Positions 17,977 to 51,086 are shown, counted from the first letter of the stretch. The stretch is 64,000 nucleotides of DNA from Patescibacteria group bacterium (GCA_041743715.1 JBGTMH010000045.1:18092-82091), one strand, 5' to 3'. The notes: generated from the sequence alone by a model not told the origin. Numbers and translations are program-made.

Positions 17977-20214
17977 ATGTTTTGGGCGGATGAACTACTA
18001 AAAAAGAGAAAAGGAAAAGAGTGGGTGAATGATGCATGGACACCGTCAGGCATTGTTCATATGGGTGGTTTAAAGGGACCTGTAATTCATGATGTTCTTT
18101 ATAAAATCCTCAAGGAGCAGCAAAAAGATGTGACGTATACTTTTGGTTTTGATGATTTTGATCCGATAGACGGATTACCTCCAAGTCTTCAAGAATCTCA
18201 CAAAGCATATATGGGTATCCCAACATTTTTGGCGCCGTCGCCTGACGGTAATGGAACATTTGCAGATTTTTATGGCAATAAAATGCGAGCCATGTTTAAG
18301 GCAGTCGGAATCGAGACGACTATCTATCTGGCATCAGTTAATTATAAAAAAGGTGTCTACAACGATGGCATTAAAATAATGCTTGATGGTGTCAAAAAGG
18401 TCCGTCAGGTTTATGAAGAGATGTATAAAAAATCTGTGAAGAATGATTGGTACCCACTACAAGTAATATGTCCGAAGTGCGGAAAACTGGGAACAACCAA
18501 AGTAACTGATTGGGATGGAAAGGTCGTGACTTTTACTTGTATGTCTGATCTTGTCACGTGGGCTAAGGGGTGTGAATATACCGGAAAGATTTCTCCATTT
18601 GACGGGAATGCAAAGATGCCTTGGAAACCTGAGTGGTCGGTTAAATGGTATACATTCAAAGTAACAATTGAAGGTGCTGGAAAAGATCATATGTCTGCAG
18701 GGGGGTCGTTTGAAATTGCTGCAAATATCCTCAAAGCTGTCTTTAATCAAGAACCACCTATGGAATTACCATATGAATTTTTTCTTTGGAACGGAAAAAA
18801 AATGTCTTCCTCAAAAGGGCTCGGGTTAACAGCGGAAGAGCTGTTAGAAGTTTTGCCCCCGCAGTTGGTTAGGTTTTTAATGATCAAAACTGAACCAAAT
18901 CGAGCAGTAGAATTTAATCCTAAAGGCACAGATATCATCCCAAAACTATTTGATGAATACCAAAAAGCAGCAGATGCATATTTCAAGAACGGAGATAAAG
19001 ATTTAGCGAGAGTATTTGAATTGTCACAAATTGAAAAAATAAAAAAGCCACCAGTTGTCCGCTTTTCTGTTCTCGCCCAGTGGGTGCAGATGCCAAATAT
19101 GCAGCAGAAAATTACAGAGGAAGGGCTTGAAGAATGGGCAAAGTATGCGAGAGCTTGGTTAGAAAACTATGCCCCGGATTCAGAGAAGTTTTTCGTTCAG
19201 AAAGACTTACCAGAAGCTGCCAAGGATCTAACGAATCAACAAAAAGTGCTTTTACAAAAGATAGCAGCGGAGCTAAACAAGGACTGGGATGCAGAAGCAT
19301 TCCAAACGAGACTATATGATATTGGAAAAGAAGTAGGTCTCAATGGCAAAGAAACATTTACTGCGATTTACAAGGTTTTGATTGGGAAAGATCACGGACC
19401 CAAAGCTGCATGGTTAATTTTGTCGTTGGACAAAGAGTTTGTTAAAGAACGATTTGAAGAGGCTGCAAAAGAGAATCAAGAATCAGGAAGCAAGAATCAA
19501 GATGTATTTTTAGTTACTCGTTTGAATAAACCGGAAATTTTTTCTCTGAACTCGAAGGTTAAAGAGAAATATCCTTCAATATCAATCGGTATTGCAGTTA
19601 TTAAAGGAGTTACTGTCGAAAAAACACATCCATCGCTCGAGGAGGAAAAAGAAAAATTGCTTACATCATTGGAAGGTTTCACCACTGAGCAACTCGGTCA
19701 GAATCCTGAAATTATTAGTTATCGAAAGCTCTACAAAGAGATGGGAGTTGATTGGCATTCTCGCAGACCAAGCCCCGAAGCGCTACTTCGACGGGTTGCA
19801 CTCCACAAAGGATTGTACACCATTAATACATGCGTTGATGCATACAATCTTGTTGTTATGAAACGCAGAGTTTCAGTCGGTGCATTTGATTTCGATACAA
19901 TCGAATTTCCCACTGAACTTCGTTTTGCAAAATCAGGCGCAGAAATTTTACTTCTCGGCGATACAACACCTACGAAATACAAACCAACAGAGCTCGCGTA
20001 TTCTGACCAAAAAGGCGGATATAATATCGACTTTAATTTCCGCGACACGAAACGTACTGCTGTAAATCTTGAAACAAAAAATGTCTATATCAATGTCGAT
20101 GGTGTGTACGACATTACATCTGAAGAAGTAGAAAAAGTTTTGCGAGAAGCATGTGATGCAATATTAAAATATTGTGGCGGAAGTCTTGAAACATTTGGAG
20201 TAGAAGAAGTATAG
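17977..20214 (+). CDS. lysK: Class I lysine--tRNA ligase with a C-terminal B3/4-like (PheRS-beta editing-domain-like) extension
   Basis: The first ~505 aa are class I LysRS (PSGIVHMGGLKG, zinc knuckle CPKCGK, KMSSSKG). The region from aa ~509 to 745 (YRKLYKEMGVDWHSRRPSPEALLRRVALHKGLYTINTCVDAYNLVVMKRRVSVGAFDFD) matches stand-alone B3/4 domain proteins. Confidence 0.85.
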   Translation: MFWADELLKKRKGKEWVNDAWTPSGIVHMGGLKGPVIHDVLYKILKEQQKDVTYTFGFDDFDPIDGLPPSLQESHKAYMGIPTFLAPSPDGNGTFADFYGNKMRAMFKAVGIETTIYLASVNYKKGVYNDGIKIMLDGVKKVRQVYEEMYKKSVKNDWYPLQVICPKCGKLGTTKVTDWDGKVVTFTCMSDLVTWAKGCEYTGKISPFDGNAKMPWKPEWSVKWYTFKVTIEGAGKDHMSAGGSFEIAANILKAVFNQEPPMELPYEFFLWNGKKMSSSKGLGLTAEELLEVLPPQLVRFLMIKTEPNRAVEFNPKGTDIIPKLFDEYQKAADAYFKNGDKDLARVFELSQIEKIKKPPVVRFSVLAQWVQMPNMQQKITEEGLEEWAKYARAWLENYAPDSEKFFVQKDLPEAAKDLTNQQKVLLQKIAAELNKDWDAEAFQTRLYDIGKEVGLNGKETFTAIYKVLIGKDHGPKAAWLILSLDKEFVKERFEEAAKENQESGSKNQDVFLVTRLNKPEIFSLNSKVKEKYPSISIGIAVIKGVTVEKTHPSLEEEKEKLLTSLEGFTTEQLGQNPEIISYRKLYKEMGVDWHSRRPSPEALLRRVALHKGLYTINTCVDAYNLVVMKRRVSVGAFDFDTIEFPTELRFAKSGAEILLLGDTTPTKYKPTELAYSDQKGGYNIDFNFRDTKRTAVNLETKNVYINVDGVYDITSEEVEKVLREACDAILKYCGGSLETFGVEEV

Positions 20215-31483: not shown

Positions 31484-32776
31484 TTATGGGCCAAATTCAG
31501 GTATCCGGAGGATATCAAAGCCTATGACTTGGAGCAAGACAAACGAGAAAATGAGAAAAATAAGTCCCACAATGGCGGCGATTAATTGATCCCGGCCATT
31601 TTGCATTTTTTCAGGATTGCCTTGTGATGTCATCAGCTGGTACCCGGATTTGATAATTAAAAGAAGCGCAATGCCGCCCGACATACTGAGTAGAATAGCA
31701 AAAAGCCGGTTGATAAATCCTCCCGGTTCGGTTTTGAGATTTCCAACTGCTGTTCCGACCTCGGTACATTTTCCATTGTCCCAGGTAACACAAGGAGGTG
31801 ACGGGGGAGGAGGAATCTCTGGTATTCCGCATCGTATTCCTTTGACAGGAGCCCCGCCAAAGATTTTATCTTTAATTTCATAGATTGTCGAGTTTGGGTC
31901 ACTTATACAAGCCAGGCTTTGGGTTTTACAAAAACTTTTTTCCTCTTTACCAAACTGCTCACAAGTAAATCCATTTTTCCCATCGCCAGTTTGGTTAGGG
32001 GTGTCACACCGACACGTAGCTACTGGTCTTTTGCATGATATGCCACTGATATTATACCCTTGATTCCCAGTCAGCTTAGCAATAGCATCGCCAATAATAC
32101 CAGGACCTAATTTATCAAGAAAGCCAGTATAGTTTCCAACGGTATTCACATCAGTTGCTAAATTAGGAGTATTTTGACATTGATCAGTTGCACTTTTACA
32201 AGTTCCCCCTCCAGTCATAGCAGCAGCATCTTCTCCTTCTTTATAGCACTCAAAGAAGTTTTGTTTGTCAGTTCCCTGGGGACCTTTACATTTACAAATT
32301 GCTTTACCTTCCTTTTTCCCAGAGCACATCACTCCCCTAAGCTTGCGAGTGGCGTCAATCTGACCCCCATCTTTTATAGACCCACTGTCTATCTCTGCAT
32401 CAGACGGATTACACGCCATATCTTCGGTTTTGCAGAAATAAGGTTTCCCATCGCACGTAAAGCCGTTATTTCCAACGCCTGTTTGACCTGGTTTTGTGCA
32501 GGTACATTGCTCAAATACTTGCTTGACACACTTGCCTTTCAGAAGTATAGTTGGTTGATCACACCTGAATCCAGGATCACACCTTTGATTAAGCTCAGCT
32601 GAATCACAAGGTTGACCTTCTCCCACTGCTTCAACTGAAGGAATATTTTGGAATAGAGATCCTGCTATAAAAAGGAAAGATAATGTAAAAAGAAAATACT
32701 TCCTCACATATCCAGCATGGCAAAAAAATTGGAGAATTGCAAGAGCGTTACAGTAGTCCTTGACAAGGGTTGGCAC
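31484..32776 (-). CDS. Cysteine-rich secreted domain fused to a C-terminal TrbC/VirB2-like pilin module
   Basis: The C-terminal ~90 aa (GGIALLLIIKSGYQLMTSQGNPEKMQNGRDQLIAAIVGLIFLIFSFVLLQVIGFDILRIPEF) are paralogous to the 100-aa pilin at 38127. The ectodomain has 24 Cys (my count) and three CxC...NGFTC...FCKT...AC modules. The real start may be the internal GTG (VRKYFLF...). Confidence 0.7.
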   Translation of the reverse strand: MPTLVKDYCNALAILQFFCHAGYVRKYFLFTLSFLFIAGSLFQNIPSVEAVGEGQPCDSAELNQRCDPGFRCDQPTILLKGKCVKQVFEQCTCTKPGQTGVGNNGFTCDGKPYFCKTEDMACNPSDAEIDSGSIKDGGQIDATRKLRGVMCSGKKEGKAICKCKGPQGTDKQNFFECYKEGEDAAAMTGGGTCKSATDQCQNTPNLATDVNTVGNYTGFLDKLGPGIIGDAIAKLTGNQGYNISGISCKRPVATCRCDTPNQTGDGKNGFTCEQFGKEEKSFCKTQSLACISDPNSTIYEIKDKIFGGAPVKGIRCGIPEIPPPPSPPCVTWDNGKCTEVGTAVGNLKTEPGGFINRLFAILLSMSGGIALLLIIKSGYQLMTSQGNPEKMQNGRDQLIAAIVGLIFLIFSFVLLQVIGFDILRIPEFGP

Positions 32777-32796
32777 TCGTGTTATATTATTGCTAA
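32760..32796 (+). promoter_or_regulatory. hrcA promoter TTGACA-17-TATATT overlapped by a degenerate CIRCE-like inverted repeat
   Basis: TTGACA 32760-32765 and TATATT 32783-32788. TTGGCACTC-N9-TATTGCTAA at 32770-32796 compares with the CIRCE consensus TTAGCACTC-N9-GAGTGCTAA (1 + 2 mismatches). Confidence 0.55.
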
Positions 32797-38126: not shown

Positions 38127-38429
38127 ATGGCCAATTTTAACTGTTCGTTGAGCGAAATATCAACTGATCTGGGATGTTTCCCAAATGATCCGATTGGATT
38201 TGTACAGAAATTTTATGCTTATGGGTTGGGTTTTGTTGCCGGTATCGCGCTTCTCTCTCTTATTTGGGGAGGTTATTCCATTCTTATGTCAAAAGGCGAG
38301 CCATACAAGGTGAATATCGGAAAAAGCTATATTTTTTATGCAATTTGTGGATTACTCCTCGCCATTTTCGGTTATGTCTTTATCCAAGTAGTGGTAGTTG
38401 ACATATTGAAGGTTCCTGGGTTTAAATAG
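38127..38429 (+). CDS. TrbC/VirB2-like type IV secretion-type pilin (CPR 'pilin' family)
   Basis: 100 aa with two TM helices flanking SKGEPYKVNIGKS and a C-terminal VDILKVPGF. Paralogous to the C-terminus of the 31484-32776 product. No signal peptide in this frame (see findings). Confidence 0.7.
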   Translation: MANFNCSLSEISTDLGCFPNDPIGFVQKFYAYGLGFVAGIALLSLIWGGYSILMSKGEPYKVNIGKSYIFYAICGLLLAIFGYVFIQVVVVDILKVPGFK

Positions 38430-38435
38430 AGATAG

Positions 38436-41330
38436 ATGAAAAAATTACTGCCCTTATTGTTCGTTGGTGTTTTTGCGCTTGTCGTACTTTTATTGCCATC
38501 TTTAGTTTCTGCGCAGGGGATAGGTCCAGGCCGTCCTAATCCTATTCAACAACTACAGCCAAATCAAAATGCTTCCAGCAGTGCTCAACCTCAACCAGAG
38601 AATAGTTCAATCTGGGTCATTGATCCCGAGGTTACCTTCATAGGTAAGAATGCTGCCCGTGCAGGAGTGTTTTTGGACTGGACACTGAAAAATTACAATT
38701 GGGTTTGTGTCAATAAAGTCAATGAACGCCAATGTGATGACAGTAATAATCCAATTGCCAAATATTGGTCTTTGATCGTTCTCTATATCGTTGTTCCACT
38801 GCTTTTTGTGGTCATTTTATTCACCTCAGCTATTATTATCATTACCCGGGGCAAAAGCTTGACCATTATGCGTTTTATTCCTCGTTTTGTGGCTGTTGTT
38901 CTCTTGATTGTCTTCTCGTATTCGTTACTACAATTCTTTTACCAGTTTACAGATTTGATACAAGGCTTTTTCCTCAGGTCTGATATCAATAAGCCATGTC
39001 CGCCTGATTGTATCCAGCAAACAGACTTATTATATGTGGGTTGGAAATACAAAACCTTTATTGGTCTGCGTTTATTGGGAGATCAGAATGCTGAATCAGC
39101 CTTTATATCGCTTCTCTTAACCAAATTAACAGCACTCACCTATTTTGTAATGGTATTTTTGCTTCTGGTGAGAAAGATTATTTTATGGTTTTTCATTATT
39201 GTTTCACCTATTTTCCCAATACTTCTTCTTTTCTACCCTGTCCGAAACACAGGTAAAATTTGGATTGGTGAATTCTTTAGGTGGCTATTATATGCTCCAC
39301 TTTTTGCGATTTTCCTTAATGGTCTTGTCTATCTGTGGAAGAATCAAATCCCGCTCGTTTTTGTGAATCCGAACATCGGGAATGCAAGCCAAATCGTTTT
39401 CCCAACCGCTGTTAACATATTGTTGGGTGGTCCGAGACAGTTCGTGACGCCAACCAATAGTGTCAATTTAGTTGAAACATTTGCGCTCTATGTGGTATCA
39501 CTTATCATGCTTTGGATTGTCATTTTGCTACCATGGATTCTGTTGCAGATTTTTCTCGACTACGCCTCCAATTTTGCACCTGGGGATACTGCTGTGATGA
39601 AGACGCTTGTAAATATGGCATCAAATCGCCCATCCCAACCTGGTGGAGGCGGTGGTAGTCAGCCACCTTCTCAAGGAGGAGGAGCAACGCTCAACTTGCC
39701 GTTCTCTAAAAAGTTTTCTATTCCTAAGGATCTGCAAAACAAACCCGCAGGTGAGGCAAAGGAGATTAAGATTGATAATGCAACCCTTAGCAATGCAACC
39801 TTTAATAAACCAGCATTCATTCCTAATGCGACGGTAAATACTGTTAATGTCGCGACAAATGTACCAACAAGTACAAATGTTCCAATAAATACAGCCGCAA
39901 ATATACCGGCGAATGCAGAGGTACTGACTCTTGCGAAGGTGAAGCTTCCTACGATGCGAGATATTGCGAAATATGATACCGCGCTTACCTCTCGTAGCCA
40001 GACCAAGCTCCAAGATGTTGCTGTTACGACACAGGCTCTTATAAGTATTGCCAATCCAGCTGTTTCGACTGTTGATAAAGAGCAGTACACAGAAATTCGT
40101 GAAAAAATCGTTGAGAAAAGTCAGCAAGGAAATATCATGGCTAGCTCTATACTCAATGCCGCAAAAGTTGCTTCTCAAAAAAATACCCAAGTGTCCAATC
40201 AGCAAGTGAAAGAATCGCTGAAGCAAATGGCAAATCCTGCGTCAGCCCCGAATACCAATAGAGACAAGATGAGTCGATTGAACAATATGCTTCAAAAAGA
40301 AAGCAGTACGAATAATAATCAAATTGCATCAAAAATTTTGAAAGTGTCTGATAAGACATCAGATAAAGAAATAGAATCACTGAAAAATAATCTCTCAGCA
40401 ACAGCGTCGAGCCATGTAAGTAAATCAGTTAATTCAGCCATCTCTCATGATGCACAAGCAACAACAAAGATAAAGGATGTGCTGAAGCAAGTAGCAGCAC
40501 CTGTTTCTGGAGCTACGGCACCAGGAGCTAAATCTGCTGCACCGCAACAGGTGACAAAGCTTCGTGGCACTTTAGAAAAAGCAAGCAAAGAAGGAAATCA
40601 GCTTGCAACATCTATACTCAAAGTTAATGATAAAACATCAGCTGATGAGATAGTAGCTCTTCAGAAGAAAATTCAAGAAGCAAAAGCAAAAGGTGAACCA
40701 GTTGCGACCGAGGTTGCAGCATTGGCTGAGCAGACTGCTGCACTGCCTACAGTAAACAGAGTACAGACAGTGAGCAAAGAAGACTACCAGGCGGTACGGG
40801 ATATGTGGAAACAAAATTACCAGAATCTAGAGGTACCTCAAGGTATGGCTGGTACACGTGCAGAGTGGATTAAGGACGATATAGCAAGTATCGATGAGAC
40901 AATTGGTTTACTTTCCTCTTCAGATCAAGACAAAGTCGAAGAAGGTATGGAGCAAGTATCCAATCTTATGCCCTTCCTGATGATGGGTGGTTTCTCTCAG
41001 ACAGAAATTGTTGATTACTTAAAAGCCAAACAAGATGCTGCCAAAGATATATCTCAGGTACTTACGAAAGAAGAAGAAGAACAAGTGACTGTCGGAACCA
41101 AACACGTTGCAGCAGAAGGTCACTTGGAAGCAACATTGGAAGATGATGAAAAGTCACCTGAGCAAAAAGCGAAGGAGGAAAACAATGCCGAAATCAAACC
41201 AGAAGGCCAGGAGAAGGAAAAACAAGCAGAAGACGCGAGTAAAACACCTACTGTAGATAAAGAGCCAGAAGACCCAATGGATAAAGTTGAGGCTGTAGAA
41301 AATGATAAGAACAAACCTGAAAATAAATAA
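38436..41330 (+). CDS. Large polytopic membrane protein with a long C-terminal repeat-containing tail
   Basis: 964 aa: signal peptide (LVSAQG), ~7 TM helices up to aa ~390, G/P/S linker (PSQPGGGGGSQPPSQGGG), three copies of a helical module (nt 40008-40735), then an acidic tail. Position next to the pilin is reminiscent of TrbL/VirB6, but I cannot verify homology. Confidence 0.7.
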   Translation: MKKLLPLLFVGVFALVVLLLPSLVSAQGIGPGRPNPIQQLQPNQNASSSAQPQPENSSIWVIDPEVTFIGKNAARAGVFLDWTLKNYNWVCVNKVNERQCDDSNNPIAKYWSLIVLYIVVPLLFVVILFTSAIIIITRGKSLTIMRFIPRFVAVVLLIVFSYSLLQFFYQFTDLIQGFFLRSDINKPCPPDCIQQTDLLYVGWKYKTFIGLRLLGDQNAESAFISLLLTKLTALTYFVMVFLLLVRKIILWFFIIVSPIFPILLLFYPVRNTGKIWIGEFFRWLLYAPLFAIFLNGLVYLWKNQIPLVFVNPNIGNASQIVFPTAVNILLGGPRQFVTPTNSVNLVETFALYVVSLIMLWIVILLPWILLQIFLDYASNFAPGDTAVMKTLVNMASNRPSQPGGGGGSQPPSQGGGATLNLPFSKKFSIPKDLQNKPAGEAKEIKIDNATLSNATFNKPAFIPNATVNTVNVATNVPTSTNVPINTAANIPANAEVLTLAKVKLPTMRDIAKYDTALTSRSQTKLQDVAVTTQALISIANPAVSTVDKEQYTEIREKIVEKSQQGNIMASSILNAAKVASQKNTQVSNQQVKESLKQMANPASAPNTNRDKMSRLNNMLQKESSTNNNQIASKILKVSDKTSDKEIESLKNNLSATASSHVSKSVNSAISHDAQATTKIKDVLKQVAAPVSGATAPGAKSAAPQQVTKLRGTLEKASKEGNQLATSILKVNDKTSADEIVALQKKIQEAKAKGEPVATEVAALAEQTAALPTVNRVQTVSKEDYQAVRDMWKQNYQNLEVPQGMAGTRAEWIKDDIASIDETIGLLSSSDQDKVEEGMEQVSNLMPFLMMGGFSQTEIVDYLKAKQDAAKDISQVLTKEEEEQVTVGTKHVAAEGHLEATLEDDEKSPEQKAKEENNAEIKPEGQEKEKQAEDASKTPTVDKEPEDPMDKVEAVENDKNKPENK

Positions 41331-45692: not shown

Positions 45693-46064
45693 ATGGGAAG
45701 TATTGTTGAGCTAAATGACACACTACAGATAACAAAAGAGCAAGGGTTTCCTCAAGATCTTGATCTTGAAAAGCATTTAAAAAATCCATTAAAAGCAGAA
45801 GATTTTGCTGGTATTGAGTTTGAATTTCACAGCAAACCTAAGATTAGAAATTATCAGGCATCACCTATACGTAACTTCTTAGTCGAAAATAGAGGTGGAA
45901 AATGGATTTATTGGGGATTAGTTCATATTACGGAGGTACAGTTAGATTATAAAAACAATACAACTTCAGGAAAATTTAAAATAGAGTACCTTTATAATCC
46001 TAATGAAATGAAGAAGGCACATGAACTTATCGATAGAAATCCAGACACTAATTACTTCAACTAA
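45693..46064 (+). CDS. Hypothetical protein
   Basis: 123-aa ORF starting 17 nt after the Clp-like stop. No family recognised. Confidence 0.55.
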   Translation: MGSIVELNDTLQITKEQGFPQDLDLEKHLKNPLKAEDFAGIEFEFHSKPKIRNYQASPIRNFLVENRGGKWIYWGLVHITEVQLDYKNNTTSGKFKIEYLYNPNEMKKAHELIDRNPDTNYFN

Positions 46065-46282
46065 AAGGTTGCACTGGTTAGCCACCTGTTTGTATTCATT
46101 CTCTATAGTATGTTGCTTAATTTTTCAAGTTCCTTGCATAGTCAGTTTGGTCAAATACAAATTATTAATAAATCATCTACGGACCAGAAGAGGGAAAAGT
46201 ATAAAATATTTTGCGTCAAGCAGGATTAACAACCGCAGAATTGCTAGTGCTACGAAAAAAATGAGTGACGTTCACCGCGCAT

Positions 46283-46311
46283 TTGACAACAATCTCAAAA
46301 CTATATAAAAT
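46283..46311 (+). promoter_or_regulatory. Promoter TTGACA-17-TAAAAT
   Basis: TTGACA 46283-46288, 17-nt spacer, TAAAAT 46306-46311. ATG 46320 follows after 8 nt with no SD. Confidence 0.5.
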
Positions 46312-46319
46312 GGCACTAT

Positions 46320-46550
46320 ATGAAGAAAATGAATGTTTCAACAAATCAGATGGAGAAATTTGCAGGCATGTGGGTGGCGATTGATCATCAAAACGACAAG
46401 ATTATTGCCGCTGGAGATACCTTTGAAGAAATTGCTCCCTTAGTAAGTGGAAAAATAAAAGATAAAAATAAAATTAAGGCTTCTGCGTTTAAGGTACCAA
46501 CAAAAGACGAAGGTTATCTCATCTTGACCACGTTACATGAGAGCATTTAA
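46320..46550 (+). CDS. Small DUF5678-like protein
   Basis: 76 aa. FAGMWVAIDHQNDKIIAAGDTFEEI resembles the DUF5678 core as I remember it. Overlaps the downstream protease gene by 14 nt. Confidence 0.5.
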   Translation: MKKMNVSTNQMEKFAGMWVAIDHQNDKIIAAGDTFEEIAPLVSGKIKDKNKIKASAFKVPTKDEGYLILTTLHESI

Positions 46551-46926
46551 ATATCAAAGGTTTACCGGAGGAATTTATTTCCCAATTATTACAGTCAACA
46601 TAATTCATAAAAATAAGTTTTTTCGTGTTGATACACTGTTAGATTCAGGAGCAAGCACATCTCTTTTTACACCAGATACTGCAAGACAATTAGGCATTGA
46701 TACCAAATCCGGAAAGAGAATTGTTTTGGGAGGAGTAGGAGGAAAAATTGATGGTTATATTAACAATCTGGAACTGGAAATTGCAGGCAAAAAATTACAC
46801 GCGCCAGTCGTATTTTCCGAAAATTATCAGGTAAGTTTTAATCTCTTAGGACGTGAGGGAATCTTTGAAAATTTCAAAATTACTTTCGACGAAAAAAACC
46901 TCGTGGTAAATTTTGAATCAAAATAA
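46537..46926 (+). CDS. Retropepsin-like (clan AA) aspartic protease
   Basis: VDTLLDSGASTSLF (D-S-G-A catalytic motif) and a C-terminal LLGREGIF...ITFD, typical of single-domain bacterial retropepsin-like proteins. Confidence 0.7.
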   Translation: MRAFKYQRFTGGIYFPIITVNIIHKNKFFRVDTLLDSGASTSLFTPDTARQLGIDTKSGKRIVLGGVGGKIDGYINNLELEIAGKKLHAPVVFSENYQVSFNLLGREGIFENFKITFDEKNLVVNFESK

Positions 46927-46961
46927 GCGAGTAAGTCTCAGCCACCACAATTTAACATTGT

Positions 46962-47948
46962 ATGACTAATTTAATAATACCTTATAAAGATGAATTGGAG
47001 GTATTAACTACCACAAAATCTCTTGTTCAAAATGCCCAATACGTATCAATTAATGAAGGAGCGATTGAAAAAATTATACATCTTATAGAAAATCGTTTGC
47101 AACGAGGTTTGCAGACTGAAAACGCGTTTACTCCCCAAATGCATTATGTCGAAGATGTCCAAGTACTCTTTTTTCAAAATGCTGTTAATTTCTGCTTTTG
47201 GGCAGAAAAAGATACTCCGAAGTGGCAAGTGGAATGGCCTAAAGGAACTATTATTACCGGGGGAGAATTTGGTATGATGGCTTGTTTTAAACGCGCTTTG
47301 GCAGAAGGAGTGCCAGTGACAGATGCACTGTACTGGCAAAATATTACAAAAAAGCAAATAGCGTATTTTTTTAGAAGTAGTAATCAAACAGAAATACCTC
47401 TGTTGGAAAAAAGACGAGAGAATCTCGCTGAGGCCGGCAGAGTTTTAGATGAGAAGTACAACGGACAATTTATACATGTTCTTGAAGCAGCAAAATATGA
47501 CGTAGTGAATTTAGTAAAGTTGACTGCGCAGGAATTTTTATCATTTACGGATAGAGTAACAATAAATAATAGTAAAGTATACTTTCTAAAAAGAGCCCAA
47601 TTTAATGCAAGTGCGATATCAAAACTTACGTATCCAGGAGCTAAAAAAATAAATCGAACCCATCTCCTCACAGCATTTGCTGATTATAAAATTCCACAGA
47701 TGTTGAGAAAGTATGGTGTCATACTATATAAATCAGATTTATCAGAAAGAATTGATAGTTATATCTTACTGCCTGCAGGAAGTACCGAAGAAAGAGAAAT
47801 ACGAGCAAGTTCCATCTGGGCTCTAGAGCTTATAAGACAAAAAATACAAAAATATACTGCTGCACAAATAGCTGATGCATTGTGGCTTATAAGTCAAAAT
47901 CAAACAGATGTTAAACCATATCACCGGACTCGGAGTAGTTATTACTGA
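46962..47948 (+). CDS. Queuosine-salvage family protein (DUF2419/Qng1-like)
   Basis: 328 aa. FWAEKDTPKW and AFADYKIPQMLRKYGVILY resemble the DUF2419 family from memory, not verified. Confidence 0.5.
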   Translation: MTNLIIPYKDELEVLTTTKSLVQNAQYVSINEGAIEKIIHLIENRLQRGLQTENAFTPQMHYVEDVQVLFFQNAVNFCFWAEKDTPKWQVEWPKGTIITGGEFGMMACFKRALAEGVPVTDALYWQNITKKQIAYFFRSSNQTEIPLLEKRRENLAEAGRVLDEKYNGQFIHVLEAAKYDVVNLVKLTAQEFLSFTDRVTINNSKVYFLKRAQFNASAISKLTYPGAKKINRTHLLTAFADYKIPQMLRKYGVILYKSDLSERIDSYILLPAGSTEEREIRASSIWALELIRQKIQKYTAAQIADALWLISQNQTDVKPYHRTRSSYY

Positions 47949-48026: not shown

Positions 48027-48668
48027 ATGTCCCGAACTCGTTTCGGGCTATTAGTAATGGAAACAAAAGATACGAAACAAGATCCAAAATTAGGCGCAAA
48101 ACCTGAAACAAAAATGCAAATACCAAATAAGTTTTTGGCATTTTTCTCGAACTTTAAAAAGGGGCCTAATGTGGATCCCAAAGCAGGCGCGAAGCCTGAG
48201 AAAAAATTTCAAATTCAAAATATCTCTTCAGCGCTTCCCTTGATTCTCTCGAAATTGAAGAAAGAAACCAAACAGGATCCGAAAGTGGGCGCAAATCAAC
48301 AGCCAAAAACAGACGCGAAGCCTGGAGTACCGTTTCGGATACCCAAATACTTAGTACTTCCCCTAATGTTCTTGAAATTTTGGTTTTATGAAAGTCCTGT
48401 GGGGATATATAAGTTTTTTGCATCGCTTAACAATGCATTTTTCCAGCTTTTTTCGTTGCCACTTCTTGTCAAGACATACTTTAAGCCGCTTAAAAATGAA
48501 TATCGACAAGGACTGGTCGGATTTTCTATTGGAATGGGTATGTTCGTCAAAACCTTTTTTATCATTGCGGATGTTATTATGTTGGTATTATTACTCCTTT
48601 TTGAAGTTACCGTGCTTGTCTCATTTGTTTTTTTGCCAATTGCGACATTTTGGTTGCTTTTTTTGTAA
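48027..48668 (+). CDS. Membrane protein with three N-terminal DPKxGAKP repeats
   Basis: Repeats TKQDPKLGAKPETKMQIPN / NVDPKAGAKPEKKFQIQN / TKQDPKVGANQQPKTDAKPGVPFRIPK, then ~3 TM helices. The real start may be ATG 48057 (METKD...), because 48032-48048 forms a CCCGAA/TTCGGG hairpin. Confidence 0.55.
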   Translation: MSRTRFGLLVMETKDTKQDPKLGAKPETKMQIPNKFLAFFSNFKKGPNVDPKAGAKPEKKFQIQNISSALPLILSKLKKETKQDPKVGANQQPKTDAKPGVPFRIPKYLVLPLMFLKFWFYESPVGIYKFFASLNNAFFQLFSLPLLVKTYFKPLKNEYRQGLVGFSIGMGMFVKTFFIIADVIMLVLLLLFEVTVLVSFVFLPIATFWLLFL

Positions 48669-48674
48669 ACAATT

Positions 48675-51086
48675 ATGGAATTATCAGCACATATATATCA
48701 TATTTATAGAACCGCGCTTTTCCGGAGTATTCGGCTTTTAACATTTACCGTGTTATTTTCTTTCATTGTCTATCAATTTTTGATTCTTCATACGTCTCCC
48801 AATTTTACCGTCTTTTTCTTTAATCTCTTGGTCATGTTTGAGGTTTTTTTCCATTATAAAATAAGCCGAGCAACACCTCCTGTTCTAGCTGCAGAGAATA
48901 AAGTTGAGACGATGTATGAATCATTTACGTTGCAAGCACTCTACGGTTTTGTTACCCAACCGACGACTGAAGGAGTGATTAAAAAACTCATTACTTATCC
49001 ACAGATAAAACTTGTCATGCAAAAAGCTAATTTGAATAAGAAAGAATTAAAATATTCAGATTTGCCGAAAGATCTGTTGGCGGAAAGTGCTTTTCAGACA
49101 GCACAGACTTTCAAAGGGAAATATGTCACCACACTCGATATTTTTGTCGCGTATCTTTTTATGATTGAGGCAGACAGTAAGTTGCTTTTTGCCAAACAAC
49201 TCAAGATAACAGATCTCTCAAACATTCTCTATTGGGTCAGGCTTGAAATGCCAGAAGAGGAGAGTCCTCCAAAAGCACGGGTACATTTCTCAGGCGTTGG
49301 GATTGGTGAACAATTAACCTCGGGATGGACACCTGAAACAAAGAAGTATACTGCTCAATTTACGACATATGCTCTCAAAACTGAGCCATTGATTGGTGGG
49401 CATGAAAATGAATTCAAAATCCTTCTTGAAGGACTGATGAAAATGGAGAACAGTAATGTCTTATTGGTAGGAGACATAGGAGCAGGGAAGGAAAATTTGG
49501 TGCGCGCCCTTGCCTATCATAGTTATGATGGGAACTTGGGAGGATATCTTAATTATAAACGCGTTTTTCAACTGCTCGTCGGTGCATTGACCGCAGGAGC
49601 TGGAGATAGGGGTAATTTAGAAACACGGCTGCAACAAATTATTGCTGAAATTTCTCATGCGAATGACGTCTTTCTCTATATCCCGGATTTTCAAAATATC
49701 TTAGGCGGTACCTCATATAAGCTTGATTTATCAGGGGCACTCCTTCCCTATCTAAAAGATGGCAATATACCCATAGTTGCGACGATGACAACTGGAAATT
49801 ATAAAGCATACATGGAAAAAAATCCTCTCAAAGAAGTGTTTACCGTTGTGCAACTCAAGCCGCCTGACCAAGATACAGCGGTACAGATGGCACTGGGAGA
49901 AGCGACAAAGATTGAAAAAAAGTACAAAGTTATCGTGAGTTATCGGGCACTTATCAGTGCGGTTGAATTAGCAGATCGGTTTTATCAAGATCAAGTGCTG
50001 CCGGGAAGCGCTATTGCTCTTTTGGAAACTGTTGCCAATGCTGTTGCATTAGAGAAAGATCGTCCTACCTATGAAAAGACACAGAGAAAAATGGTACTTG
50101 AAGCAGATGTGGTAAAAAAAGTAGAACAAACAAGCCATGTCGCAATTGCATTGCCTACAGGGAAAGAGATAAACTTACTGCTTCATTTGGAGGACAAATT
50201 GCATGAGCGGGTGATAGCGCAAGATGAGGCGGTGAGTGCCATTAGCGAGGCCATGAGGCGGATTAGATCTGGCATGACGACCAGCGAACGGCCGATTTCT
50301 TTTCTTTTCTTAGGCCCGACTGGTGTAGGAAAAACAGAAACAGCAAAGGCCCTTGCTGATTTTTATTACGGCGGACAGAAAAATATGATCAGGCTTGATA
50401 TGAGTGAGTACACCGATGCAAATGGTCTCAAGCGGTTGTTAGGCGCGCTTCCTGGAGAAGGAGAGGAGCGGGGACTGTTAACTGATAAAATTCATGATAA
50501 TCCTGCATCACTTGTCTTGCTTGATGAATTTGAGAAAGCATACCCTGCAATTCACAATATATTTCTTCAAGTTCTGGATGATGGACGACTGACCGATAAC
50601 AAAGGCGTCACAGTATCTTTCCGCAATGCCATTATTATCGCCACCTCAAATGCAGGATCTGAGTTCATTCGGGAAGCAGTGGAGAAGGGAGTGCCAATTG
50701 ACAAAAGTTTTGAACAACAACTTTTGGAACAATTGCAATCCCAAGGTATTTTCAAACCAGAATTACTCAACCGTTTTGACGATGTCATAACATTTAAACC
50801 CCTCGGGACTGAGCAAGTAACTGCAGTAACGAAGCTTGTATTGCAGCAACTGACGAAGACAATGGAAAAGCAAGATATTACATTGACCTTTGATGATGCG
50901 GTTATTGAAAAAATTATCAGAGAGGGCTACGACAAAGATTTCGGCGCCAGACCCCTCCGCCGCTACATACAGGATACGGTAGAAGACATGATCGCACAGA
51001 AACGCTTAACCAAAGAAATAGACCGAGGCAAAAAAGTTGCTTTTTCTATTGATGGTACAGGGGCACTTCAGGCAACGATAACGTAA
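48675..51086 (+). CDS. Membrane-anchored Clp/Hsp100-like ATPase with degenerate first AAA+ module
   Basis: Two N-terminal TM helices, then a Clp_N-like double repeat. D1 Walker A is GDIGAGKE (no T/S) and the Walker B position is IPDFQN (no DE). D2 is intact: [32 protein letters not shown]. Confidence 0.8.
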   Translation: MELSAHIYHIYRTALFRSIRLLTFTVLFSFIVYQFLILHTSPNFTVFFFNLLVMFEVFFHYKISRATPPVLAAENKVETMYESFTLQALYGFVTQPTTEGVIKKLITYPQIKLVMQKANLNKKELKYSDLPKDLLAESAFQTAQTFKGKYVTTLDIFVAYLFMIEADSKLLFAKQLKITDLSNILYWVRLEMPEEESPPKARVHFSGVGIGEQLTSGWTPETKKYTAQFTTYALKTEPLIGGHENEFKILLEGLMKMENSNVLLVGDIGAGKENLVRALAYHSYDGNLGGYLNYKRVFQLLVGALTAGAGDRGNLETRLQQIIAEISHANDVFLYIPDFQNILGGTSYKLDLSGALLPYLKDGNIPIVATMTTGNYKAYMEKNPLKEVFTVVQLKPPDQDTAVQMALGEATKIEKKYKVIVSYRALISAVELADRFYQDQVLPGSAIALLETVANAVALEKDRPTYEKTQRKMVLEADVVKKVEQTSHVAIALPTGKEINLLLHLEDKLHERVIAQDEAVSAISEAMRRIRSGMTTSERPISFLFLGPTGVGKTETAKALADFYYGGQKNMIRLDMSEYTDANGLKRLLGALPGEGEERGLLTDKIHDNPASLVLLDEFEKAYPAIHNIFLQVLDDGRLTDNKGVTVSFRNAIIIATSNAGSEFIREAVEKGVPIDKSFEQQLLEQLQSQGIFKPELLNRFDDVITFKPLGTEQVTAVTKLVLQQLTKTMEKQDITLTFDDAVIEKIIREGYDKDFGARPLRRYIQDTVEDMIAQKRLTKEIDRGKKVAFSIDGTGALQATIT

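Follow-up and report, generated by a model that had tools for sequence, protein, structure and literature searches.

A membrane-anchored Clp/Hsp100-type ATPase with a degenerate first ring and its small membrane-protein partner in Levybacteria

Clp/Hsp100 proteins are textbook soluble threading machines that depend on tyrosines in their pore loops. Here we describe a membrane-anchored relative, encoded in a 64,000-nt stretch of DNA from a Patescibacteria group bacterium (GCA_041743715.1 JBGTMH010000045.1:18092-82091; hereafter the window). At positions 48027-51086 of the window, two plus-strand open reading frames (ORFs), 48027-48668 and 48675-51086, encode a membrane protein of 213 residues, which we call the partner, and an ATPase of 803 residues with two AAA+ modules, D1 and D2. 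Taken together, the evidence leads us, with moderate confidence, to regard the two as an obligate two-subunit membrane AAA+ machine that is independent of a protease, is driven by D2 and probably does not act by classical threading. Their features are collected in Table 1.

The pairing of the two genes is a constant of the family. A HMMER search with residues 1-235 of the ATPase against 1.84 billion representative proteins returned 87 clusters (at 50% identity), with alignments starting at residues 2-7 and full-length members of 778-832 residues, and a motif-seeded scan of 185,579 species, each represented by a single genome, found 50 loci. By tblastn, the partner core, its C-terminal ~109 residues, was encoded immediately ahead of the ATPase gene and in the same orientation in 49 of 49 testable species genomes; the fiftieth locus (L023), with ~100 nt of upstream sequence only, was not counted. 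The pairing holds over the whole range of ATPase divergence, from 38 to 79% identity. In the window the membrane-protein ORF stands, as originally predicted, directly ahead of the ATPase on the same strand, with 6 nt between the two. The corresponding gap in relatives is mostly between -4 nt (an ATGA overlap) and +26 nt, with a maximum of 46 nt, which argues for co-transcription and coupled translation of partner and ATPase. Programmed read-through of the partner TAA, the two genes being in frame in the window, was considered and rejected, since both spacer length and frame vary in relatives.

Moreover, the two genes are fused in nature. Locus L049 (3719-6337) holds a genuine in-frame fusion, a single ORF of 872 residues in which the last helix of the partner takes the place of the first transmembrane (TM) helix of the ATPase. 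Two short metagenome contigs carry others: the fusion in P0223 is of the same type, and in P0236 the last partner helix is joined straight to the cytoplasmic segment that follows the second TM helix. An apparent fusion in L046 proved to be an artefact of a run of Ns. Strict synteny, translational coupling and gene fusion are together strong evidence for a physical complex of partner and ATPase, and the two-component membrane complex that had been suggested from the window alone is thereby upheld.

Four features define the family: a TM hairpin, a GWTPETK(K/N)YT linker, a D2 pore loop free of Tyr, and an upstream ~109-residue protein bearing FKPLKNEYR. The window protein has all four, as do essentially all of its relatives. 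Both proteins are confined to the same small lineage, and the informatively named records are all Levybacteria/Levyibacteriota (Microgenomates, Patescibacteria). Some records are titled "uncultured Gammaproteobacteria", "Saccharimonadales", "Acidiferrales" or "Limnocylindrales" (L001, L005, L009, L010, L023 and others). The NusA encoded directly downstream in these oddly titled records is 76-92% identical to that of the window, which places them in the same lineage and shows their titles to be unreliable.

By homology the ATPase is a class-I Hsp100, closest to ClpA/ClpC. A Pfam scan matched AAA_lid_9 (residues 399-470), AAA_2 (541-703) and ClpB_D2-small (710-789), with no AAA family over D1, no Clp_N and no Peptidase_M41. 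In a phmmer search against the PDB, Bacillus subtilis ClpC was the best match (E=3e-106), followed by ClpB, ClpC1, ClpA and Hsp104, the ClpC and ClpB matches being ~1e-100 or better. Foldseek superposed an AlphaFold2 (AF2) model of the ATPase, made from a 20-sequence alignment and with a mean predicted local distance difference test score (pLDDT) of 77, on the D1-D2 portion of ClpB and ClpC over ~590 residues, with a target-normalised TM-score (TMt) of up to 0.88. The Pfam domains, the ClpC match and the superposition thus identify a two-ring Clp/Hsp100 ATPase. Two elements that define the partnerships of classical members are missing from it. The ClpP-docking tripeptide (I/L/V)G(F/L) is absent from the region in every member examined, ClpC NKYVGFNV being aligned there to EKGVPIDK, and the ATPase alignment contains no counterpart of the M-domain, residues 407-471 of ClpC. 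The original prediction had called the protein unusual for the Clp/Hsp100 class, and every tested NCBIfam equivalog agrees: ClpA, ClpB, ClpV, ClpK and ClpG all score below cut-off. The top match, TIGR03346 (ClpB), reaches 438 bits against a cut-off of 1232, and ClpV/TssH, ClpK and ClpG reach 368, 375 and 361 bits against 885, 1900 and 1900. A search of the paper library on membrane-anchored Hsp100 proteins, Clp proteins of the candidate phyla radiation (CPR) and Levybacteria found no description of it. Public records label the protein "ClpA/ClpC, ATP-binding subunit of Clp protease", which its sequence features do not support.

The two N-terminal TM helices that had been read from the window sequence are confirmed. 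The AF2 model has helices at residues 14-37 (TM1) and 43-63 (TM2), with pLDDT of about 80-87; mean Kyte-Doolittle hydropathy over 45 relatives is 2.08 for TM1 and 1.76 for TM2; and among nine close relatives substitutions in the first 64 codons are distributed 726/402/1223 over codon positions 1/2/3, which is a coding pattern. The hairpin is real, translated and conserved. Mean identity is 47% in TM2 (FLFNLFVMxEVFFHYKI) and 31% in TM1, and residues N50, E56 and F59 of TM2 are near-invariant, with E56 changed to His in one deep subclade. Across the 45 relatives the 20-residue N-terminal tail has a net charge of +3.1, the connecting loop is close to neutral and the stretch that follows TM2 has about +2. 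Under the positive-inside rule, this distribution predicts a hairpin with both ends inside (N-in/C-in) and the ATPase in the cytoplasm.

D1 is degenerate. When it is aligned to ClpC, GDIGAGKE stands against GEPGVGKT at Walker A and IPDFQN against IDELHT at Walker B, confirming both substitutions as first noticed, and P337 and N341 are invariant in two alignments, A1 and A2. The decay extends beyond these motifs: the trans-acting Arg fingers are lost (ERRF to LKE[AV]F), the KYR pore loop has given way to AGAxNR, so that its Tyr is gone too, and LPDKAIDL is replaced by LPGSA[IV]xL. The proposal of an inactivated D1 is supported. A local sequence error had been considered; the closest relatives (60-79% identity) carry both substitutions, which are thus a trait of the family and not an error. 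Deep-branching members keep GK[ST] in the D1 Walker A although their Walker B Asp and Arg fingers are already gone, which places the Thr-to-Glu change after the inactivation of the ring. Eight members have Arg instead of Lys in the D1 P-loop (GR[EKS]). A deep subclade (L039, L040, L044, L045, L046, L047, L054) combines GK[ST] or GKD in the D1 Walker A with His at TM2 position 56, and the most divergent member, L053 (38% identity), has GKT and "IVFIEN".

Despite this loss of motifs, only one region of the protein is better conserved than the D1 large subdomain (mean pairwise identity 57%), which argues that D1 is retained for some role. The degenerate state of D1 characterises the family and is under purifying selection, and by analogy with other double-ring AAA+ proteins the role of D1 is most plausibly ring assembly, either nucleotide-dependent or purely structural. 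NSF and p97 are alike in having one conserved, catalytically silent ring, probably for assembly, while the other ring works; they differ in belonging to another AAA+ clade, in being soluble and in having aromatic pore loops in the active ring.

D2, in contrast to D1, retains a complete set of catalytic motifs: Walker A GPTGVGKT (residues 547-554), Walker B VLLDE (614-618), a TSN sensor 1 and the Arg finger R700. These are essentially invariant among 45 sequences, and the D2 large domain is the most conserved region of the protein (71% identity). The original description of D2 as fully canonical holds for Walker A, Walker B, sensor 1, the Arg finger and sensor 2; it fails for pore loop 1. There the GYVGY motif is replaced by PGE--G[DEN]ERG in the 45 members examined, none of which has an aromatic residue, and the loop is shorter still in the deep subclade (LES----GSGSFL). 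Indeed, neither D1 nor D2 has an aromatic pore-loop residue in any member examined. The aromatic-hydrophobic pore-loop motif is the substrate grip of AAA+ translocases, and in the membrane extractases Msp1, Cdc48, Yme1 and AFG3L2 the aromatic pore loops are reinforced, not lost (PMC7018516).

The partner has no match in Pfam or NCBIfam. Its homologues form 46 clusters, mostly of 117-155 residues, and the named ones are all "hypothetical". Within the conserved core, the signature loop TFFKPLKNEYRxGLVGFS is kept in 48 of 48 aligned partner sequences (alignment A3 has T150, F152, P154, K156, N157, E158, Y159, R160, G162, L163, V164, F166 and S167 invariant), and the ~45-residue hydrophobic stretch carries conserved K175, D182 and E193. 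For the partner portion of the P0223 fusion, AF2 gives a pLDDT of 92-98; Foldseek of that model against the PDB found no meaningful match, the best E-value being 0.87. The repeats first taken as the mark of this protein belong to a genome-specific extension, and the conserved part is the C-terminal ~109 residues. Of the three DPKxGAKP repeats that had been counted, those at residues 19 and 50 are exact, and the one at residue 84 is degenerate (DPKVGANQ…DAKPG). The extension consists of three units from these residues, each DPKxGAKPxxKFxIP followed by a short hydrophobic helix. It contains 22 Lys or Arg against 9 Asp or Glu (net charge +13), its 104 codons are free of stops (P=0.0014 by chance), and units 1 and 2 differ at nine codons, five synonymously and four non-synonymously; the charge, the missing stops and the synonymous differences indicate that it is probably translated. 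Most partners begin "MNxYLxLP…" without a tail, and the closest relatives have a Lys/Pro-rich tail of ~35 residues, "MKDEKQ…KPK…PKFRMP". The DPK repeats are a lineage-specific triplication of this basic N-terminal tail and the first helix, and the true start of the partner may be Met11 (48057, "METKDTKQ"), which resembles the start in relatives. The partner is often overlooked in gene calling, where an ORF of 61-69 residues on the minus strand is annotated in its place (9572-9781 in L001, 9754-9939 in L003), so that the partner family is under-annotated.

Table 1. Features of the partner-ATPase unit and the neighbouring long Clp gene (window positions; residue numbers refer to the respective protein; AA, amino acids)
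Feature	Position	Strand	Remarks
Partner gene, 213 AA	48027..48668	+	Orphan helical membrane protein; family core ~109 AA
Basic N-terminal extension of partner, AA 1-104	48027..48338	+	Genome-specific; DPK motifs at AA 19, 50, 84
Conserved partner core, AA 105-213	48339..48665	+	Helix FLKFWF…, conserved loop, ~45-AA hydrophobic stretch
Partner signature loop TYFKPLKNEYRQGLVGFS, AA 150-167	48474..48527	+	Alignment A3
Spacer, partner stop (TAA) to ATPase ATG	48669..48674	+	6 nt
Two-ring Clp/Hsp100 ATPase, 803 AA	48675..51086	+	Pfam, phmmer against PDB, AF2/Foldseek
N-terminal membrane hairpin, TM1 AA 14-37, TM2 AA 43-63, 5-6-AA loop	48714..48863	+	AF2, hydropathy
Eight-helix N-domain, AA 77-191	48903..49247	+	AF2 helices, pLDDT 85-92
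Linker signature GWTPETKKYT, AA 217-226	49323..49352	+	N-domain to D1; family form GWTPETK(K/N)YT
Degenerate D1 module, AA 236-470	49380..50084	+	Aligned to ClpC residues 179-407
D1 Walker A GDIGAGKE, AA 266-273	49470..49493	+	Lys kept, Thr/Ser replaced by Glu
D1 Walker B position FLYIPDFQN, AA 333-341	49671..49697	+	Asp replaced by Pro337; catalytic Glu position D/E338
D2 large domain, AA 541-703	50295..50783	+	Pfam AAA_2, E=1e-46
D2 pore loop 1 LPGEGEERG, AA 592-600	50448..50474	+	2 residues shorter than canonical, no aromatic
D2 small domain, AA 710-789, sensor 2 GARPLRR	50802..51041	+	Pfam ClpB_D2-small, E=1e-21
Long Clp paralogue, 1432 AA	41377..45675	+	Context for the pair, not part of the unit

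Set beside its nearest homologues, the ATPase shares with ClpA/ClpC the layout of N-domain, D1, lid, D2 and D2 small domain, identical D2 catalytic motifs and TMt of 0.8-0.88, and with ClpA the lack of a long M-domain. Unlike ClpA/ClpC, it has a TM hairpin, is tied to an obligate small membrane partner and is without the (I/L/V)G(F/L) loop for ClpP; its D1 lacks the Arg fingers, the Thr of Walker A and the Asp of Walker B, the tyrosines of KYR and GYVG are gone, and its N-domain is not recognised as Clp_N by Pfam. ClpB/Hsp104 resembles it in being protease-independent, in the missing ClpP loop and in being encoded near dnaK-dnaJ-grpE. In contrast to ClpB/Hsp104, it is anchored in the membrane and lacks both the M-domain coiled coil for coupling to DnaK and the pore-loop tyrosines.

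In the interpretation that we favour, the two genes would be one operon for an obligate membrane complex, found among named records only in Levybacteria. The first subunit would be the ~109-residue helical membrane protein with its conserved basic loop FKPLKNEYRxGLVGFS, which, like the basic tail of the partner, points to a cytoplasmic location; the second would be a derivative of a ClpA/ClpC-type class-I Hsp100. The N-in/C-in hairpin would hold the ATPase at the cytoplasmic face of the membrane with N-domain and D1 toward the bilayer, in a ring, presumably a hexamer, held by 12 TM helices and the partner subunits. D2 alone would hydrolyse ATP and supply all mechanical work, and D1, whose P-loop Lys/Arg is kept, would most likely be a nucleotide-binding or purely structural assembly ring. 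The missing ClpP-docking loop and M-domain argue against both a protease partner and a DnaK-coupled ClpB, and the missing grip elements, reduced further in one subclade, make classical processive threading unlikely. ATP hydrolysis by D2 would remodel the partner or a membrane assembly at the inner membrane face, or else the machine may act on a small range of clients, for instance juxtamembrane stretches of basic character, to which the E-G-x-E-R loop would be complementary. The position of the operon between hrcA-grpE-dnaK-dnaJ-clp and nusA-infB would fit a housekeeping function in the quality control or assembly of proteins close to the membrane. Hexamer formation, the topology, nucleotide binding by D1 and the non-threading mechanism are things that we infer.

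Several observations weigh against this interpretation. A canonical D2 loop, DGRLTDNKG, is retained, and a specialised substrate could still be held and translocated by the charged D2 pore loop; the missing Tyr is no proof against threading. The Walker A Glu and D/E338 might preserve some Mg-ATP chemistry in D1. The fusions disagree on the topology of the partner, those of L049 and P0223 implying a C-terminus outside and that of P0236 one inside, and the AF2 model of the P0223 fusion draws residues 53-131 as one unbroken helix. The chaperone-operon context is only suggestive, since three unrelated genes part the pair from the neighbouring long Clp gene in the window, and a search of the window for the controlling inverted repeat of chaperone expression (CIRCE) found none upstream of the pair, the sole site preceding hrcA. 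Lastly, we infer oligomeric state, topology and ATPase activity for all family members.

The membrane anchor could also call to mind an FtsH- or Msp1-like dislocase or unfoldase that draws membrane or secretory proteins from the bilayer via its axial pore, held by the acidic/basic D2 loop, with the partner as substrate adaptor or entry gate. The N-terminal anchor puts the normal Hsp100 entry face (N-domain and D1) against the membrane, D2 is a complete motor with its second pore loop DGRLTDNKG kept, the operon lies in a proteostasis neighbourhood, and the acidic loop would complement Lys/Arg-rich cytoplasmic loops of membrane proteins. Like FtsH, the ATPase is a bacterial AAA+ protein with two N-terminal TM helices at the cytoplasmic membrane face, presumably hexameric and with its entry face to the membrane. 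However, FtsH has one AAA module with an M41 metalloprotease, a sizeable extracytoplasmic domain between the TM helices and an aromatic pore loop; the ATPase has two Hsp100 modules, 5-6 residues between its TM helices, and neither a protease domain nor an aromatic pore loop. Msp1/ATAD1 is similar in that its AAA+ ring is anchored to the membrane by the N-terminus, but it has a single TM helix and one ring, in contrast to the two TM helices, two rings and dedicated membrane partner of the ATPase. The characterised extractases carry extra pore-loop aromatics, the doubly aromatic loops of Msp1/ATAD1, Cdc48 and Yme1 gripping hydrophobic clients (PMC7018516), and the ATPase family has none. Pore loop 1 lacks an aromatic residue in both rings and is almost deleted in the deep subclade, and there is neither a protease domain nor a ClpP-docking loop for disposing of an extracted chain. 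On balance we consider such a dislocase unlikely.

A more specific version of work done without threading is suggested by Torsin, which, with LAP1/LULL1, is a Clp-D2-like AAA+ protein that has no aromatic pore loop, works at a membrane, needs a membrane-protein partner and is thought to remodel and not to thread. Torsin is single-ringed, lumenal and eukaryotic, and its Arg finger is supplied by the partner. The missing aromatic pore loop and the membrane partner are what the ATPase has in common with it, a functional analogy in which we claim no homology; unlike Torsin, the D2 of the ATPase has its own invariant Arg finger, R700, and the partner is small and helical with no AAA-like fold. We regard it as a tentative idea, and rather improbable, that a Clp-derived D2 ring without threading spends ATP on conformational changes in small membrane subunits arranged as a ring, as a bacterial counterpart of Torsin. 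The conserved intramembrane K175, D182 and E193 of the partner, with E56 of the ATPase, belong to this same tentative idea, and the work could be the gating or powering of transport, insertion, or lipid or envelope remodelling. The ATPase itself is not a member of the FtsH, Msp1, Torsin, NSF or p97 families.

The surroundings of the pair bear on the remaining explanations. The region opens in the window with a CIRCE-like site (32770-32796), hrcA, grpE, dnaK, an ORF of 317 residues and dnaJ. Then follow a gene for a 100-residue protein resembling a type IV secretion system (T4SS) pilin, one for a 964-residue membrane protein, and the long Clp gene (1432 residues). Between the long Clp and the pair (45693-47948) lie an ORF of 123 residues, an aspartyl-protease-like gene and a queuosine-salvage gene. 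These are absent at the equivalent position in most relatives, with a Q_salvage match only in L007, and resemble a local insertion that interrupted an originally contiguous cluster. In L001, indeed, dnaK, dnaJ, the pilin-like gene, a gene for a protein of 1149 residues, the long Clp, the partner and the TM-anchored Clp follow in uninterrupted order. Downstream of the pair come CarboxypepD_reg, TPR/PMT and SdrD-like envelope genes, then nusA, infB and, further on, pnp. Among the loci scanned, nusA follows the pair in 30, and the long Clp lies at most 4 kb upstream of it in ~27 of 47. The pair is neither a mobile nor a defence element but a stable housekeeping feature of a neighbourhood devoted to proteostasis and translation. 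The CIRCE-like inverted repeat, TTGGCACTC-N9-TATTGCTAA, at 32770-32796, has three mismatches to the consensus and stands ~20 nt upstream of hrcA (32815); one such site occurs in the window, against 0.01 expected by chance. A scan for promoters and terminators around the pair gave no more sites than shuffled sequence.

The second atypical Clp protein that the original prediction placed nearby is indeed there, its 1432-residue gene lying 3 kb upstream of the ATPase. Both rings of this long Clp are catalytically canonical, with GYVGY intact in D2 and SHR instead of KYR in the D1 pore loop. It is without an M-domain and without a ClpP-docking loop, falls below the NCBIfam cut-offs for ClpB and ClpA, and is extended at both ends, by a low-complexity N-terminus of ~135 residues (PQDPNAP repeats) and a C-terminal extension of ~550 residues. 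The ATPase is colinear with it at 35% identity over 659 residues. This relationship also bears on the N-domain of the ATPase, for which a Clp_N-like double repeat had been proposed. Pfam Clp_N (PF02861) matched none of 43 family N-domains, and a profile of the N-domain gave chance matches only against PDB sequences. However, hhalign of the N-domain against the Clp_N of the long Clp aligned repeat 2, and only repeat 2, with 83% probability (E=9e-6), and the BLASTP colinearity of the two proteins starts inside Clp_N repeat 2. The N-domain thus appears, on profile comparison, to be a strongly diverged Clp_N derivative, in which half of the double repeat is demonstrable, and the earlier proposal is to that extent half supported. 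The linker signature that follows (invariant residues G217, W218, T219, E221, T222 and Y225) has nothing matching at its positions in the long Clp.

Directly upstream of the long Clp, the 964-residue protein (38436-41330) has a signal peptide, about 6-7 TM segments and a long tail. A repeated module of ~50-100 residues is common to this tail and the C-terminal extension of the long Clp (residues ~890-1270), with BLASTP giving 30% identity over 226 residues (E=6e-18; example, EGNQLATSILKVNDKTSADEIVALQKKIQEAKAKGEPVA). The adjacency of the two genes is kept in L001, L003, L031 and L042, and suggests a second pairing of a membrane protein with a Clp protein in the same region. Most tblastn matches to the 964-residue protein in relatives were discarded, as they fall on the shared repeat inside the long Clp and not on a separate gene.

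Given this neighbour, the ATPase might be a membrane tether or regulatory paralogue of the long Clp, forming mixed rings with it or recruiting it to the membrane. The linkage of the two genes at the distance given above would fit, as would their colinearity and the loss of M-domain and ClpP loop in both, and the pairing of a degenerate with an active paralogue is common among AAA+ proteins. However, D2 of the ATPase has an Arg finger of its own and a full set of catalytic motifs, so that no partner ring is needed, and strict pairing with translational coupling is found for the small membrane protein and not for the long Clp. Moreover, the long Clp seems to have a membrane link of its own in the repeat module shared with the 964-residue protein, and unrelated genes separate the two Clp genes in many loci. 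We therefore find a tethering role distinctly doubtful.

Somewhat less probable again is that, instead of serving quality control, the ATPase energises the assembly of, or export by, a nearby envelope or secretion apparatus made up of the T4SS-pilin-like 100-residue protein and the polytopic 964-residue protein. The smaller pilin-like gene (38127-38429) encodes two TM segments and has a weak NCBIfam match to the Mbov_0395 pilin-like conjugal transfer family; a second (31484-32776, minus strand) encodes 430 residues with a C-terminal PF18895 domain. The order of pilin-like gene, large membrane protein, long Clp and pair recurs in L001 and partly in L003, L031 and L042, and the 964-residue gene adjoins the long Clp. 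In contrast, the pilin matches in Pfam and NCBIfam are weak and below cut-off, the window showed no component of VirB4, VirD4 or PilB type, and the pair is not tightly adjacent to the pilin-like and 964-residue genes. An artefact, be it a pseudogene in decay or an ordinary soluble ClpA/B/C whose start was mis-called or whose sequence contains an error, is refuted: although some database entries (737-750 residues) owe their starts to calls at internal Met residues, and public annotation sometimes has a minus-strand ORF where the partner should be, the N-terminal 64 codons are coding-like and conserved in 87 clusters, the degenerate motifs recur in all close relatives, D1 and D2 are strongly constrained, and ATPase start codons abut or overlap the partner stop codon.

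Two other genes of the window have unusual domain combinations. A phosphoketolase of 925 residues (XFP_N, XFP, XFP_C; 102-2879) is fused to a C-terminal CoA_binding_2 domain, and a class-I lysyl-tRNA synthetase (tRNA-synt_1f; 17977-20214) has a C-terminal B3/4 domain (residues 582-734). The B3/4 domain is usually found in the beta subunit of phenylalanyl-tRNA synthetase.

The family described here departs from Clp/Hsp100 in four respects at once: it is integral to the membrane, one ring is silenced, the aromatic grip is gone from both rings while the D2 ATPase is intact, and a small membrane subunit is obligate. It thereby raises the question of what an Hsp100 motor does without threading, and offers a compact bacterial system for the coupling of an AAA+ protein to a membrane partner. 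In Levybacteria, CPR bacteria that have not been cultured and about whose cell biology very little is known, the pair is a lineage-defining piece of the envelope or of proteostasis.

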